Source of the DNA: a virus
Lineage: Duplodnaviria > Caudoviricetes
DNA length: 64,000 nt
Strand: one strand, 5' to 3'
IMG/VR virus record: IMGVR_UViG_3300029288_004108
Location: 1-64,000 of that record
Part shown: in pieces, positions 1,998 through 7,198 of the stretch
How the letters are laid out: each line of letters opens with the position of its first letter
How positions within the stretch are numbered: position 1 is the first letter of the stretch
Position numbers and translations under genes: made by a program
The notes under the pieces: generated by a model
The model's input: the letters and a program-made list of their open reading frames with translations, nothing else
Databases searched by the model: none
Told to the model about the DNA's origin: nothing

Positions 1998-2839
1998 AGG
2001 AGCGTAAAATCGTCTACAAGATTGAGGAAGGAGTAAAGCCGGAAGAGGTTTACTGTACAACGTATCAAATGAGAAATTTTTACGCTCAGTTTGCCGATGG
2101 CTTTTTCTCCTCCCTTGACGTGATGAATTACATCCAGCACCATGCCGCAGTACTCCAGATGAAAAAAGATTGGGTGGTGCTGGATGTTTGTTGTGGTCGT
2201 GGGATGCTCCTGCCTTTAATCCGATACTATCGACCGGAGATCAGGGAATATGTCGGAGTGGATATATCGGAACAAAACATAAATGAACAACTCCGACGCT
2301 CCGGAATAAAGAAAATAGAAGATGTAAATTCCTATTATCCTTTTACCCTCACTCATGTCATTTCATCGGTAGAGGATATGGATAAGGTCATAAAACATTC
2401 TTCCATTGACTATATCATTTATACATCAGCCATAGAACATATGCAAAAGGATGTAGGATATCGGTCACTGGAAAATTGTTATAATCTTCTCAAACCCGGA
2501 CATAGGATGTTTCTCTCCTGTCCCAACACAATGAATAAGAAAGATCCTTATGATACCCAGTATGCAGCTCATGTCTATGAATGGGACAGGGAGGAATTAA
2601 GTAAAGCCGTCCGGGAAATAGGATTTGAGATTGCTGAGGAATATGGATTGGTAGCCAAGGTTAGGGAATTTGAAGAATGGATGAAACACCAGTCATCAGA
2701 CCTGCAGAGTGAATACTGGAGATTGAAAGAATATCTTCCCACCCAGTGGCTAATGTCCTTTATGCCAATCCTCCACCCGAAAGCAGCATCAGAAGTATTG
2801 ATGATAATTGAAAAACCAATAAGTAAACGTTTACTATGA
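1994..2839 (+). CDS. Class I SAM-dependent methyltransferase
   Basis: VLDVCCGRG (motif I), [34 protein letters not shown]. Confidence 0.88.
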
Positions 2840-3387
2840 CAGAAGAAGCTTTACATGAGTTAATCAAAACTCAGATTTCAGAAATCGGTGATAGTCCCGA
2901 TAGACAAGGATTAAAAGATACTCCGAAGCGGGTTATCCGTTCCTGGCAGGAACTCTATGCAGGGTACTGGGAGAAACCGGAAGATATCCTGACAGTATTT
3001 GATGCCGGTACGTATGATCAGATTGTCTTACTCAAGGACTGTGAACTCTACTCGATGTGTGAGCACCATATGTTACCATTCTTCGGGAAAGCACATATTG
3101 CTTACATCCCGAATGATAAGGTGATTGGAATATCAAAACTTGCCCGTTTGCTGGAAATATATTCCCGACGTCTGCAGATTCAGGAGAGGATCGGAGAGCA
3201 GGTTACAGAAGCTATTATGGATTATCTGGGAGCCAAAGGGGCTGCTTGTATTATAGAAGCGGAGCATATGTGTATGCGGATGAGGGGAGTGGGAAAACAG
3301 AATTCCACCATGGTCACATCATCCCTTAAAGGAGCTTTCTTTACTTCGTCGGCAGCCCGTTTGGAATTGATGGGATTAATAAAATGA
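2836..3387 (+). CDS. folE: GTP cyclohydrolase I
   Basis: [38 protein letters not shown]. Confidence 0.97.
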
Positions 3388-3545
3388 AAATTTACATGGC
3401 AGGGACTCCGGGTACGACTTCCCGGGAAAAGGCTTGGCAAACACTAATCATCAACCGTTTATTATCTTACTGGGACATCCAGGAAGATCAGTTCGGAGTT
3501 CCCTTTGCCTTCAAATTAATCAAATGGAAAAACAAAAAAAAGTAG
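3384..3545 (+). CDS. Mini-ORF 1 (53 aa) resembling the N-terminal module of DpdA/TGT-fold proteins
   Basis: Not in the ORF track. Hand translation: [57 protein letters not shown] overlap with the folE stop. Confidence 0.75.
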
Positions 3546-5413
3546 ACCTCTTTCTGGATTCAGGAGCTTTCTCCGCGTGGACGCAGAAGGCTACCATCGA
3601 CATTCAGGAATATATCCGATTCATAAAAGAGAATCAGGATGTAATTGAAGTATATGCAAACCTGGATGTCATTGGTATTGGAGGGAAACAACCAAACCGA
3701 TTGACTGCCGAAAAGACTTTGGAGAACCAAAGGATAATGGAAAAGGCTGGATTACATCCTATTCCATGTTTTCACTTTGGAGAACCAATGGAATTTCTTG
3801 ATATGTATGTAAAAGAGTATGATTACCTTGCTCTTGGTGTAGCTGGTAACTCCGGTACTCAACTCATTCCATGGTTGGATAAATGTTTCTCAGAGCATAT
3901 CTGTGATCAGGATGGAATGCCAAAGATAAAAATTCATGGGTTTGCCGTAACATCACTCAAAATTATGATGAGATATCCATGGTATTGTATGACGGAAGAA
4001 GATCATCAAGTACTAACCAAACAAGGATGGTGTAGTAGAAAAGATTTGAAAATTGGTGATCAAATTTTAGCTTTTAAAGATGGGATAAGTTTGTGGGAAG
4101 AAATATTAGAAATTCCATCATTTGATGTAATTAATACTCCTATAAAAGCTTTAAATTATAGAACTTTTTCGGCAAGAGTTACTGGGAATCATCGTTGGCG
4201 AGTAAAGTCAGCATATTCTGATAAATGGAAATGGAAAACAACAGATGAGTTAAATACAAATTGTTATATTCCAAGAGTTGGGAAATACCAAGCCCCCATT
4301 AATAAAATATATAGTGATGATTTTGTTAAAGCATTTGCTTGGTATTGGACAGAAGGGTGTATTAAAAAGAGAAAGAACTATAAATTACCGAGTATTACTA
4401 TTTCTCAATCAATATCTGCAAATCCTGAAAAAGTAGAGTTGATTAGGGAAATACTCAAAAATTGTAAAGAAAAGTTTTGTGAAGGTATAGCAGAGCGGTA
4501 TGATTTAGGAATTTATAGGAAAGAAATGACTTTTGAATTATATGGACCTCTTAGAGATTGGTTATTATCTATTTCTCCTAATAAGCAAATTCCAATGGAA
4601 TTTTTATTAAATTTAACGGAAGAACAATTACATATTTTTATAGATCACTCTATTTTAGCAGATGGTTCCAGAGGGGTTTTAAAAAGAAAGAAGAGTTTTG
4701 TAATTACTCAAGGCTCAGAAAAAAATATAGAAGAATTTCGAATTGCCTGTTTGCTTGCTGGTTACCCCACTTCTGTATATAAAAAAGGAGAAAAAGGATT
4801 AGAAATAGCTTCTTCCTCTGTAAATTATATTCATCCAAATCAGATGAAAGTAAATGAATTTTCATATACGGGAAAAATATGGTGTGTCCGTGTTCCCAGT
4901 GGGGCATTCTTTACTAAGTGTAATGGAGAAATATATGTTACTGGAAACTCAGTCGATAGTACCTCATGGGTTGTTACCGGAAGGATGGGATCAATATTTA
5001 TTCCAAGGAGGAAGAATGGTAATTGGGTATATGATGAAAACCCTTGGAAGATAGCAGTATCGAGTCGTTCCCCCGGAACTGAAGATGCTGGGAAACATAT
5101 CGGGACTCTATCAAAAGCTGAACGGGATGTATTCCTTCAATATATCCATGAAAAAGGGTATTCACTCGGCAAATCCGAATTCAAGAAAGTGCTTCAGACT
5201 CATCAGCTCTCCGATAATGAGCGATGGGTTGATAAGAAACCCACTGATAAATCTGCTCTCAGGGAATTGGAAGTGATTACAGAAGACGGATTATCAAACC
5301 GTTACCAATTAAGGGATGAGATAAATATTATGTATTTCCTTGATCTGGAGAAGAACTCCCCTGCGTGGCCTTGGGCATTCAAGTTGAATGATATGCAAAA
5401 AGGATTGTTATGA
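3524..5413 (+). CDS. dpdA: DNA 7-deazaguanine transglycosylase (DpdA, TGT-like) precursor containing an intein
   Basis: LFLDSGAFSAW, YANLDVIG, PIPCFHFGEP, KIHGFAV, YPWY|SVDSTSW after intein removal. Neighbours folE/queD/queE. ATG 3524 follows an AAATTAATCAA leader. Confidence 0.88.
   Translation: MEKQKKVDLFLDSGAFSAWTQKATIDIQEYIRFIKENQDVIEVYANLDVIGIGGKQPNRLTAEKTLENQRIMEKAGLHPIPCFHFGEPMEFLDMYVKEYDYLALGVAGNSGTQLIPWLDKCFSEHICDQDGMPKIKIHGFAVTSLKIMMRYPWYCMTEEDHQVLTKQGWCSRKDLKIGDQILAFKDGISLWEEILEIPSFDVINTPIKALNYRTFSARVTGNHRWRVKSAYSDKWKWKTTDELNTNCYIPRVGKYQAPINKIYSDDFVKAFAWYWTEGCIKKRKNYKLPSITISQSISANPEKVELIREILKNCKEKFCEGIAERYDLGIYRKEMTFELYGPLRDWLLSISPNKQIPMEFLLNLTEEQLHIFIDHSILADGSRGVLKRKKSFVITQGSEKNIEEFRIACLLAGYPTSVYKKGEKGLEIASSSVNYIHPNQMKVNEFSYTGKIWCVRVPSGAFFTKCNGEIYVTGNSVDSTSWVVTGRMGSIFIPRRKNGNWVYDENPWKIAVSSRSPGTEDAGKHIGTLSKAERDVFLQYIHEKGYSLGKSEFKKVLQTHQLSDNERWVDKKPTDKSALRELEVITEDGLSNRYQLRDEINIMYFLDLEKNSPAWPWAFKLNDMQKGLL
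3986..4948 (+). mobile_element. Intein (321 aa) with LAGLIDADG-type homing endonuclease motifs
   Basis: Starts CMTEEDHQVLTKQGW and ends WCVRVPSGAFF...VTGN followed by Ser. Internal FAWYWTEGC and SILADGS motifs. AT-richer than the flanks. Removal restores YPWYSVDSTSW. Confidence 0.93.
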
Positions 5414-5655
5414 AAATCTATTTGGAAGGACATGACCGGGGAGGATTTGAAGATGTCTATTATCCTATTCCCGGTTCCAATAAAGTTCTTATCCGGGAAC
5501 CAGCTGTTATTGCTCATTGGACTGATGGGAGAGTCCTATTTAGTTTCCTTTGGGATGGATTGAGGAGGAAGAATCAGGGAGGTAGAAGAGGTGATTTGCA
5601 TGGAAGAGAAATAAAATATGATTTGAGTGGTTCCTCATTAAAAAGAATGAAATGA
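5410..5655 (+). CDS. Mini-ORF 2 (81 aa), MKIYLEG...VLFSF paralog
   Basis: ATGA overlaps at both ends. Most divergent member of the set. Confidence 0.65.
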   Translation: MKIYLEGHDRGGFEDVYYPIPGSNKVLIREPAVIAHWTDGRVLFSFLWDGLRRKNQGGRRGDLHGREIKYDLSGSSLKRMK

Positions 5656-5828
5656 AAATATACATGGCAACCTGGTTATTCGATAGATCACTCGGGAGAA
5701 GCTCCACCAAACTCCGTTCCAGGAGAAGACTACTCAGTTATTATTTTCTAAGGGATCAGGGGATAACCAACGATCAGCTCAATACCTACTGTATATCCGG
5801 CAGGTTAGATACCAGGAAAATTAAATGA
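5652..5828 (+). CDS. Mini-ORF 3 (58 aa), MKIYMAT...RLLSYY paralog
   Basis: Not in the ORF track. MKIYMATWLFDRSLGRSSTKLRSRRRLLSYYFLRDQGITNDQLNTYCISGRLDTRKIK*. ATGA overlap. Confidence 0.7.
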   Translation: MKIYMATWLFDRSLGRSSTKLRSRRRLLSYYFLRDQGITNDQLNTYCISGRLDTRKIK

Positions 5829-5921
5829 CAAGGGGGTGTAATCAATTGTAATTATAAAATGATAATATCCCTTAATAATGATATCACAAATGATTACATC
5901 AAATAAAACCATCGAGTACCA

Positions 5922-6095
5922 ATGAGAATCTATCTGGCGGGTATCCCAAAAAGATATCATAGGGTGAACGGATTAAAATACAAAGTATTGTTTAGTTATT
6001 TTACAATCGTCTTCCCAACACAAAAGTGGGGAGCAAAAAGTGACTTTAGATATTATACTAATGAAAATATATCTGGCAGCGGTAGAACCACCTAA
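5922..6095 (+). CDS. Mini-ORF 4 (57 aa), MRIYLAG...VLFSY paralog
   Basis: Not in the ORF track. MRIYLAGIPKRYHRVNGLKYKVLFSYFTIVFPTQKWGAKSDFRYYTNENISGSGRTT*. Confidence 0.65.
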   Translation: MRIYLAGIPKRYHRVNGLKYKVLFSYFTIVFPTQKWGAKSDFRYYTNENISGSGRTT

Positions 6096-6228
6096 ACACC
6101 TGAGAATGATACCAAATTGTCTTCTCAGTTATTATGATATTGAAATTACTACCGTACCATTCAGAAAGGAAACATTCAAAACTATAAAATATGGAAATAA
6201 GCAAAAAAGAATTAGAACACGCTCTTGA
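6061..6228 (+). CDS. Mini-ORF 5 (55 aa), MKIYLAA...LLSYYDI paralog
   Basis: MKIYLAAVEPPKHLRMIPNCLLSYYDIEITTVPFRKETFKTIKYGNKQK. Shares LLSYxDI..VPF..FKxIK..NK.K with mini-ORF 1. Confidence 0.7.
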   Translation: MKIYLAAVEPPKHLRMIPNCLLSYYDIEITTVPFRKETFKTIKYGNKQKRIRTRS

Positions 6229-7198
6229 GATCGTCAAACCCGGGCTGGCAAACAAGGATATTGTAGAACAAGCTACATCATTTGCCTTTGTAAAAGGGAA
6301 GGTTGTTACCTATAATGATGAAATAAGTGTTTCTCATCCTGTTGCCGGGTTGGATATTGCGGGAGCGGTAGAGGCTGATATCCTTTACAAATTATTATCA
6401 AAAGCAAAATCTGATACCCTTAACCTGCAGGTGGAAGAAAATCAGATCACTCTCACTCAAGGAAAGATGCAAGCTGGTTTCTCCCTTCAGTCGGAGATAA
6501 AATTACCGATAAATGAAGAGGTGTCGGATATTGGTAAATGGAAGAAATTACCTGATAAATTTTCAGAGTTCCTTGAATTATCCATTCCATCAGCATCGAA
6601 GGATATGAGCAGACCGGTATTGACCTGTGTACATGTATCAAAGGACGGATATATGGAAGCATCTGATAGTTTTTGTCTTACCCGATGCACTTTCTCTGAT
6701 GATGTCCCGGTAAAGACATTCCTTATCCCTGCCACATCTGCTATTCAGGTCATCCGACTCTCCCCTACTCAGATTGCAGAAGGTAAAGGCTGGATTCATT
6801 TTAAGAATGAAGAGGAATCAGTAATATCTTGCAGGGTGCTGGCTGATAGTTTTCCGGATGCTTCTCATCTGTTGAGTGTGGAAGGTCATAAATTGATTCT
6901 ACCGGAAGCTATCCCGGAAGCATTGGATCGGGCGTCGATTGTAGCTAAGAGGGATCATCCACTTGAGGAAATGGTAACAGTGGAAATAAAAGATAAGACT
7001 CTTCTCATATCCTCCGACTCAAAGGAATCATGGTTCAAGGAAGAACTCAGGATAAATTTCAAGGAACATCTTAAATTCAATATCACTCCTTATCTTCTCC
7101 GGAAAATACTTACAAAGACTCGGGAATGTGTGGTGAGTGATAGCAAGTTAAAATTTGAAGGAGAAGGTTGGAAATATATAGCAGCTTTAAGATCATGA
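6191..7198 (+). CDS. dnaN: DNA polymerase III beta-like sliding clamp
   Basis: 335 aa. ELEHALEIVKP, SRPVLTCVHV, EASDSF, DSFPDAS, EALDRASIVA. Size and motif spacing fit a beta clamp. Lies in a replication cluster with a DnaX-like loader. Confidence 0.78.
   Translation: MEISKKELEHALEIVKPGLANKDIVEQATSFAFVKGKVVTYNDEISVSHPVAGLDIAGAVEADILYKLLSKAKSDTLNLQVEENQITLTQGKMQAGFSLQSEIKLPINEEVSDIGKWKKLPDKFSEFLELSIPSASKDMSRPVLTCVHVSKDGYMEASDSFCLTRCTFSDDVPVKTFLIPATSAIQVIRLSPTQIAEGKGWIHFKNEEESVISCRVLADSFPDASHLLSVEGHKLILPEAIPEALDRASIVAKRDHPLEEMVTVEIKDKTLLISSDSKESWFKEELRINFKEHLKFNITPYLLRKILTKTRECVVSDSKLKFEGEGWKYIAALRS

Follow-up and report, generated by a model that had tools for sequence, protein, structure and literature searches.

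How can a DNA transglycosylase work when its gene begins almost at the catalytic motif, and why do five short open reading frames (ORFs) of one common pattern lie around that gene? These questions are raised by the dpdA locus of a virus of the Caudoviricetes (Duplodnaviria), IMG/VR virus record IMGVR_UViG_3300029288_004108. The stretch analysed here, positions 1 to 64,000 of this 77,650-bp record, which is rated 100% complete, is referred to as the window. We consider it probable that the DpdA of the window is naturally split within its triosephosphate isomerase (TIM) barrel and that the missing quarter is supplied in trans by the products of the short ORFs, called modules below. Completion of the barrel in trans by variable modules had been suggested from the letters alone (the sequence-only reading). 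Those of its refuting conditions that lend themselves to computation all turned out in its favour. The suggestion has gained support from homology, from the position of the modules in the fold, from conservation and selection, from their linkage to dpdA and from a predicted complex of one module type (B). From these lines we infer that module and core bind physically, that the core needs a module and, more speculatively, that the modules differ in specificity.

Five related ORFs around the dpdA gene

The five ORFs, designated modules A, E, B, C and D in the order of their genes, were all found on the + strand at the coordinates given by the sequence-only reading. They share an M(K/R)IY(L/M)(A/E) start and a later (L/V)(L/F)S(Y/F) strand, and they align with one another. 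A regular expression for this pattern, run in six frames over the 64 kb window, matched these five places alone. A hidden Markov model (HMM; 57 positions, threshold 10 bits) was built from the modules and applied to related loci. These comprised seven close and 80 further loci carrying this DpdA clade (L numbers below), and fused and split counts are given for 81 of them. Above 10 bits the HMM gave 279 hits on the dpdA strand and 2 on the opposite strand, the latter reaching 10.9 bits at most (81 loci). Since the regular expression is unique in the window and the HMM hits are strand-biased, the pattern is not due to chance. The elements of the locus are as follows (pN and pS, proportions of non-synonymous and synonymous differences).

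3384-3545, + strand: module A, 53 amino acids (aa), HMM score 82.9 bits, a predicted β1-α1-β2-α2 quarter-barrel encoded as its own ORF
3524-5413, + strand: DpdA core, precursor of 629 aa interrupted by an intein, phrog_887 match at E 1e-47
3986-4948, + strand: intein, 321 aa, between RYPWY and SVDSTSW, Cys as first residue, ending …TGN and followed by Ser
5410-5655, + strand: module E, 81 aa, HMM score 30.6 bits, divergent, with a long β1/α1 loop, coupled to the dpdA stop by ATGA
5652-5828, + strand: module B, 58 aa, 'ATWL' subfamily, coupled to module E by ATGA, pN/pS 0.18-0.28
5922-6095, + strand: module C, 57 aa, 'AGIPKRY…QKWGAK' subfamily, HMM score 58 bits
6061-6228, + strand: module D, 55 aa from the MKIY start, '…LLSYYD…PFRK.TF' subfamily, pN/pS 0.27-0.47

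The genes are tightly packed. The start of module A overlaps the folE stop in an ATGA, which together with the dpdA/E and E/B overlaps makes up the three ATGA couplings seen at first reading. The tail of module A overlaps the start of the DpdA core by 22 nucleotides (nt), and module D overlaps module C by 35 nt and the start of the clamp gene by 38 nt. The near-identity of the 5' ends was also borne out, the first and third ORFs being 92% identical over 24 nt. Orthologues of module A occur in L004, L003 and L007, and in L005 it is fused (pN/pS 0.16-0.31). Module E is present only in the window and in L002. Module B represents the most widespread type of free module. Orthologues of module C occur in L004/L026 and L079 (79% aa identity to L004, synonymous sites saturated), and module D is the closest paralogue of A.

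Searches of the five small ORFs against Pfam, PHROGs and NCBIfam returned no family at E<=1, save one chance-level PHROG row. For modules A and B, tblastn against GenBank phages gave no match at E<=1, and a search with module B in the ESM Atlas returned only an unnamed cluster at 0.77, which is uninformative.

The DpdA core and its intein

The ATG of the window core at 3524 lies 8 residues before LFLDSGAFS, as expected from the remark that DpdA starts almost at this motif. Profile positions 54-204 of the 509 positions of phrog_887 ('queuine tRNA-ribosyltransferase') correspond to core residues 5-154, and about 53 N-terminal profile positions are absent from the window core. Searches of the window DpdA against Pfam and NCBIfam gave no match. 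The catalytic residues of the DpdA of phage CAjan have been assigned as Asp63 and Asp206 (PMC7544227). The equivalents of both are kept in the window core, within LFLDSGAFS at core residues 9-17 and within SVDSTSW directly after the intein. A tblastn search with the L004 core orthologue detected the dpdA genes of CAjan, 9g and Seurat with 39-41% identity (E 1e-44 to 1e-47). Sequence, fold, catalytic motifs and context all place the enzyme of this locus in the DpdA1 clade; a single complete barrel is the feature of the clade that it lacks.

The interruption of the core that the sequence-only reading implied in speaking of a 'spliced DpdA' exists, and it is an intein, removed by protein splicing, instead of an intron. 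It was identified by aligning the window DpdA to the intein-less L004 orthologue. The element is an in-frame insertion absent from orthologues, with Cys at position 1, a terminal Asn followed by Ser, and an endonuclease domain recognised by a weak LAGLIDADG_3 match (E 0.013). It is present in L002 and absent from L003-L008, and it adjoins the SVDSTSW strand, which bears the second catalytic Asp, on its N-terminal side.

The missing N-terminus corresponds to the first quarter of the barrel

As the window's own protein carries an intein, the fold was modelled with AlphaFold2 on L005, a fused relative with 68% identity. The model (predicted local distance difference test, pLDDT, 89; predicted template modelling score, pTM, 0.86) shows an N-terminal segment with a strand at residues 2-6, a helix at 12-21, a strand at 24-28 and helices at 29-47, followed by the strand 55-59 (LFLDS). 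Compared with tRNA-guanine transglycosylases (TGTs), it gave a Foldseek probability of 1.00 and, by VIA, Z 17 (17.3) at a root mean square deviation (rmsd) of 3.4-4.0 over about 255 residues (258 at rmsd 3.5). Residue 1 of the L005 model aligns with residue 40 of the Zymomonas mobilis TGT, and the catalytic Asp lies on the third strand. Because of this register, the N-segment is, according to the model, β1-α1-β2-α2 of a TGT-type barrel that starts just past the N-terminal lid of the TGTs. A search of the fused DpdA against PDB sequences by phmmer gave no match.

The first two strands are thus placed in the N-segment, and the window core starts 8 residues before the third. On this model the core alone comprises six of the eight barrel strands (β3-β8), and its barrel is incomplete. 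Eight strands in one polypeptide, which is what a spliced DpdA complete by itself would have, are not found in the window core.

The statement that DpdA-like phage proteins carry an N-terminal IYxA…SY segment proved correct: CAjan and about half of the 120 closest homologues have it fused. A fused relative gave 2,314 homologues, and the best 120 of these divide about evenly into fused proteins of about 350 aa and core-only proteins of about 305 aa, the latter beginning 5-18 residues before LFLDSGAFS. When module and full-length sequences were compared, A-type modules scored 72-92 bits on the fused N-termini. By sequence comparison, the five small ORFs, with HMM scores of 30.6-82.9 bits, are homologous to the N-terminal β1-α1-β2-α2 segment of full-length phage DpdA.

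A predicted complex of core and module B

To analyse the fit of a free module, the L004 core (311 aa) and the L004 B module (59 aa) were co-folded with their own alignments alongside three controls. The interface score ipSAE was 0.89, 0.89 and 0.88 for core and module, and 0.00 for the best of the three controls. In a calibration, 58 of 80 solved complexes and 2 of 110 mismatched pairs reached this mark, counts that are rough here, own alignments having been used. The runs shared at least 98% of contacts, with a partner pLDDT of 83-84. The contacts with the lowest error paired residues 24-30 of B (second strand) with core residues 7-11 (VDLFL, the strand of the catalytic Asp), and residues 2-4 of B (first strand) with core residues 158-161 (YSVD, the strand of the second Asp). 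This prediction supports a B module that fills the β8-β1-β2-β3 slot and closes the barrel. Residues 8-12 of B, including the family-invariant Trp8, lie outside the predicted interface and would for that reason face the open catalytic side. The sequence-only reading had called for co-folding of each module with spliced DpdA. What was obtained is entry of the B type into the barrel slot at 0.89 against 0.00, for one module type and with a relative's core.

Free modules are widespread and linked to dpdA

In 37 of the 81 loci a module is fused in frame to DpdA, and in 44 DpdA is core-only. One to seven free modules occur in 73 of the 81 loci, most of those with a fused DpdA included, and the overall copy number ranges from 0 to 7. 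Among the free modules, 178 are intact ORFs of 40-100 aa with Met at model position 1. They fall into subfamilies, of which B ('ATWL') was found in 44 loci, G ('TAPGNE') in 17, D ('…LLSYYD…PFRK') in 15, A ('AGTPG…WQ…SFWDI') in 14, H ('VMNV.GRER') in 8 and C in 3, besides many others. The variation between subfamilies is greatest in the β1/α1 and β2/α2 loops, and the core-facing strands are conserved in all types.

Searched against 1.84 billion proteins, a profile of B detected 329 cluster representatives at E<=1e-3, of which 145 reached E<=1e-10; nearly all are stand-alone gene calls of 41-80 aa. In 44 of 47 loci found through B alone, a dpdA DSG motif precedes B on the same strand at a distance of 866-2468 nt. 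The commonest distance is about 870 nt, which means that B begins where dpdA stops. Of the three exceptions, two lie at the end of a contig. Free modules are strictly linked to dpdA, and the split arrangement is widespread, occurring in over a hundred uncultured phage contigs.

Several loci depart from the common arrangement. L071 holds one natural B-like module fused to a DpdA with intact catalytic motifs. L087 (4096-6026) has two complete tandem dpdA paralogues and no free modules, and L052 (4869-6035) has two in-frame modules, each with its own Met, preceding one core; both arrangements are consistent with a value in having several variants. In L002, a 206-aa gene without a Pfam hit (6111-6731) stands between the E and B orthologues and is absent from the 92-98% identical window. 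This indel exactly at module boundaries suggests recombination between near-identical module starts. Frameshifted modules were seen in L039 (170-304), L068 (4979-5225 and 5288-5450) and L078 (88-290), and also in L086, L069, L036, L074, L063, L028 and L011. Several of the frameshifts sit just after a …RER(E/K)… stretch, and in L068 the module attached to the core is among those affected. They could be due to decay, to an error of assembly or to slippage on an AG-rich tract. Two kinds of apparent fusion were rejected. The long B-profile proteins P0237 and P0179 are probably read-throughs into unrelated neighbours, a helical protein and an HNH endonuclease, and a D-type module in frame with a 912-aa ORF for a uracil-DNA glycosylase (UDG)-polymerase in L081 (7422-10160) was judged to be adjacency without a stop.

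The joint between module A and the core

The overlap of module A with the core contains a possible frameshift site.

3536-3542, + strand: A_AAA_AAG heptamer in the frame of module A, with TAG directly after it (3543-3545)

The module A ORF ends AAC AAA AAA AAG TAG in the window and in L002. A reading in which -1 frameshifting or A8 slippage at 3536-3542 is the main route to DpdA would make the first ORF the 5' part of the gene and leave the other four unrelated to assembly. The site itself fits such a reading: the heptamer is a canonical X_XXY_YYZ in the zero frame, the frame is correct and the stop follows immediately. Read from the sequence, a -1 slip would yield a full-length DpdA collinear with the fused homologues, and the heptamer is retained in L002 even though the adjacent bases differ. 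The relatives and, less clearly, the surroundings speak against it. Beginning 5 nt past the stop a hairpin could form, but its fold is unexceptional (z -1.58; 16 of 200 shuffles fold as well), and no GGAGG-like or Shine-Dalgarno-like stimulator is visible upstream, in 3505-3535. Among further loci, three are +1 and two are -1, and other split relatives have plain ATGA or short overlaps. L004, L033 and L057 would need +1, L041 has a plain ATGA overlap, and in L007 and L008 no module precedes the core. In L007 the core starts directly after folE, with an A-type module 2.6 kb away. Moreover, the core has its own conserved Met start, a Lys-rich linker by itself accounts for the A-run, and modules B-E are left unexplained. 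Frameshifting as the main route is in our view unlikely.

A conserved programmed frameshift was rejected, as relatives need +1, have ATGA overlaps, are fused or have no upstream module. A sequencing error in the A8 run was likewise rejected as an explanation for the split, given that the independent metagenome L002 has the same frames with other bases alongside and that the split recurs in many loci. The sequence-only reading had allowed for completion 'by frameshift': a -1 site is indeed possible in the window, but it is not conserved among relatives. Separate, coupled translation appears from these sequences to be the general rule, with frameshifting at most a local extra in this window.

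In 87 of 94 unique fused N-termini a Met is found 4-19 residues before the motif, 79 of them at 8-12, and this conserved Met occupies the position where core-only proteins start. Elsewhere in the module the frequency of Met is 1.1%, and the exceptions at the conserved position are mostly Val. This conservation suggests that translation starts internally, or that fusion and fission have recurred at the joint. An internal start would offer free modules a way to a core even in 'fused' phages. The fused DpdA of L016/L017, a single lineage, is without the conserved internal Met; the locus has no free modules, and dpdA abuts the clamp gene.

What weighs against a split enzyme

Several observations weigh against the split-DpdA proposal. 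The result of the co-fold may largely reflect likeness to fused TGT-fold structures, because both chains are halves of one known fold, and it covers the B type alone, with the 73%-identical L004 core instead of the window's own intein-containing core. Free modules also occur beside fused, apparently complete DpdAs (34 of 37 fused loci), so that completion of the barrel is by itself an insufficient explanation unless translation does begin at the conserved internal Met. In a few core-only loci, L072 for example, no module, or one below threshold, lies within about 5 kb, and L080 has only an 11.6-bit hit. The modules of some relatives are frameshifted (L039, L068, L078 and others), which suggests dispensability. 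Finally, that distinct subfamilies are deeply conserved could just as well reflect separate partners or roles in regulation.

On another view, free modules are regulators or decoys that act on the open edge of the core or on the nascent core and so keep DpdA inactive or time its action, or they pair with a partner other than DpdA. Their persistence beside fused, complete DpdAs would fit such roles, as would the deep conservation of subfamilies B, D, G and H, which are unfused in the sample save for one B-like case; the predicted binding site is the same as that of a productive subunit. Yet the core-facing strand residues are conserved in all types just as in the fused forms, the one B-like fusion is to a DpdA whose catalytic motifs are intact, and no candidate alternative partner is conserved in the loci. 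With 44 of 81 cores unfused to a module, a working DpdA requires that one or more of the free modules be productive. We regard a purely regulatory or unrelated role as improbable.

Coding constraint on the modules

Compared with L003, L004, L005 and L007, the window shows saturation at synonymous sites (pS 0.64-1.0). Over the same comparisons modules A-D retain 52-79% aa identity with pN of 0.15-0.33, a constraint indistinguishable from that of the DpdA core, FolE and the clamp. Against the near-identical L002, the ratio of synonymous to non-synonymous codon changes is 9:2 for module E and 9:3 for module B. Because amino-acid change is low despite saturated synonymous sites and the ORFs are intact, the modules are, as judged from these alignments, conserved genes under selection and not debris.

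The downstream ORFs might also be taken for copies of the dpdA 5' end that are in decay or act as silent recombination cassettes, without protein function. Their near-identical 5' ends, the gene gain or loss exactly at a module boundary in L002, the frameshifted modules of some relatives and a copy number of 0-7 would fit this. Such a reading is very hard to reconcile with ORFs that stay intact and keep Met at model position 1 even between relatives saturated at synonymous sites, with pN/pS of 0.16-0.47 as in bona fide genes, with the changes in module E between near-identical genomes, with conserved stop/start coupling and with 329 worldwide B representatives of conserved length.

A model for a split DpdA

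In the split-DpdA proposal, the intein-free core would carry β3-β8 and both catalytic aspartates, and a separate polypeptide of about 55 aa would supply β1, β2 and their helices. Module A would be the cognate, historically contiguous piece, and modules E, B, C and D would be its anciently diverged paralogues. Translated from one operon by overlapping start/stop coupling, the modules would compete for the slot between β8 and β3 and give rise to a mixed population of holoenzymes. In the window, a -1 slip at A_AAA_AAG may additionally give some fused A-core protein.

In solved TGT and bacterial DpdA structures the β1/α1 and β2/α2 loops lie on the catalytic, nucleic-acid-binding face. It is because of this position that the subfamily-specific loops of the modules would be the likeliest determinants of the G contexts, or of the deazaguanine base, of each holoenzyme. 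In bacterial DpdA these loops correspond to Ins1 and Ins2, which contribute to the DNA-binding surface and border the active site (PMC10164549). Single-chain DpdA1 enzymes are restricted in context, the DpdA of CAjan modifying GA and GGC only (PMC7544227). A different DNA-context specificity for each module is plausible. Going further, the modules might form a combinatorial system that reprograms the context or base of one core, reaches many more contexts than CAjan does and draws on cores released from fused genes by internal initiation; we put this forward tentatively, as a possibility somewhat short of an even chance.

Gene neighbourhood

The locus is part of an early/replication operon on the + strand that spans 135 to about 11,800. 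Its gene order is QueD, QueE-like, a 209-aa ORF, an S-adenosylmethionine (SAM) methyltransferase, FolE, the dpdA/module region, the sliding clamp, a DNA methyltransferase, a UDG/3'-5' exonuclease protein and PolA. The neighbouring genes are as follows.

135-548, + strand: QueD, deazaguanine synthesis gene
466-1293, + strand: radical-SAM QueE-like gene, deazaguanine synthesis
1368-1997, + strand: unknown 209-aa ORF, no match in Pfam
1994-2839, + strand: class-I SAM methyltransferase
2836-3387, + strand: FolE (GTP cyclohydrolase I), Pfam PF01227 at E 3e-67, upstream neighbour in the 7-deazaguanine operon
6191-7198, + strand: sliding clamp (DNA polymerase III beta-like), weak Pfam DNA_pol3_beta_2/3 matches, downstream limit of the module array

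The window DpdA is associated in the genome with genes for deazaguanine synthesis (QueD, QueE-like and FolE), and no QueC was seen in the deazaguanine operon stretch of the window. Given the SAM methyltransferase in the operon and no QueC in view, the inserted base may be derived from 7-carboxy-7-deazaguanine (CDG) or methylated, instead of 7-cyano-7-deazaguanine (preQ0). A blastn search of the region against GenBank phages matched folE fragments only.

The array has a single real intergenic gap, which separates modules B and C and contains a 16-nt inverted repeat (5837-5852 / 5883-5898; 88% complementary, 30-nt loop), one arm of which differs in L002. This repeat could act as a terminator or as an operator. 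The sequence where module D ends and the clamp gene starts (6189-6210, ATGGAAATAAGCAAAAAAG) is similar to that where module A ends and the core starts (3521-3541, ATGGAAAAACAAAAAAAAG), and the first codons of the clamp gene may derive from a duplicated module/core junction.

Relation to known enzymes

DpdA1 of Escherichia phage CAjan (Seuratvirus) and of phage 9g are DNA preQ0/G+ transglycosylases (PMC6884629, PMC7544227). CAjan DpdA is the characterised enzyme closest to that of this locus, and the resemblance shows in several respects. The L004 orthologue is 41% identical to it over the core, the Asp motifs correspond, (V/L)FLDSGAFS and S(C/V)DS(S/T)SW, and the synteny is shared (folE, small ORF, dpdA, small ORF, clamp, polymerase). 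Both also have the N-terminal M.(I/V)(Y/F)(L/M)A…SY pattern, which in CAjan is a 61-aa segment, M.VFMAA…ILESYHY, before VFLDSGAFS. In contrast to the window, with its separate gene, four paralogues and intein, CAjan DpdA is a single chain with the N-segment fused, and the small ORFs flanking it are not modules (HMM <=4.7 bits). Both CAjan and Cellulophaga phiSM are cultured phages; they have a fused DpdA and no free modules at the same HMM scores (<=4.7 bits), and no cultured model was found.

Bacterial DpdA (S. Montevideo, PMC10164549), the Z. mobilis TGT and the P. horikoshii ArcTGT share with the phage enzyme the (β/α)8 fold and the catalytic Asp on β3. Compared with them the phage enzyme, as modelled, is without the N-terminal β-sheet lid. 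All solved TGT and bacterial DpdA members are single chains through β1-β3, unlike the arrangement in the window.

HsdS of Type I restriction-modification offers a functional analogy only: one catalytic core is served by several alternative small partners that bear the specificity and are encoded nearby. HsdS, however, is a complete, separately folded DNA-binding protein, whereas the piece in the window would be an integral quarter of the catalytic barrel, and there is no homology between them. Fragment complementation of TIM barrels is known from laboratory work with half- and quarter-barrels of HisF/TrpF-type enzymes. As there, a (β-α)2 unit would be given in trans to finish a (β/α)8 barrel; those cases are engineered, whereas the window would be a natural, widespread case with multiple paralogues. 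We know of no described natural enzyme in which a TIM barrel is completed by choice among separately encoded (β-α)2 pieces.

The sequence-only reading knew of no described system of this kind, and a search of the DpdA literature, full texts included, agreed with it: no mention of a split DpdA, of accessory small ORFs or of N-terminal subunits was found. The DpdA1 enzyme itself is known; what would be new here is a DpdA that is split by nature and served by a whole family of genes for quarter-barrel subunits, an arrangement common among uncultured phages.

Implications

If the core needs the modules, this would be the first natural case known to us of choice among quarter-barrel pieces, and it would bear on the origin of barrels from quarter-barrel units. 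The proposal would explain hundreds of 'hypothetical' ORFs of 45-80 aa and why about half of this DpdA clade looks N-terminally truncated, and it would put their annotation right. Such a dpdA, expressed alone in E. coli, may fail because its subunit is missing. A core with exchangeable modules would also be a naturally modular scaffold for engineering sequence-selective DNA base-exchange enzymes. For the phages themselves, the gain or loss of 170-nt genes could widen or change the set of hypermodified guanines, which would add a new layer to the restriction arms race.

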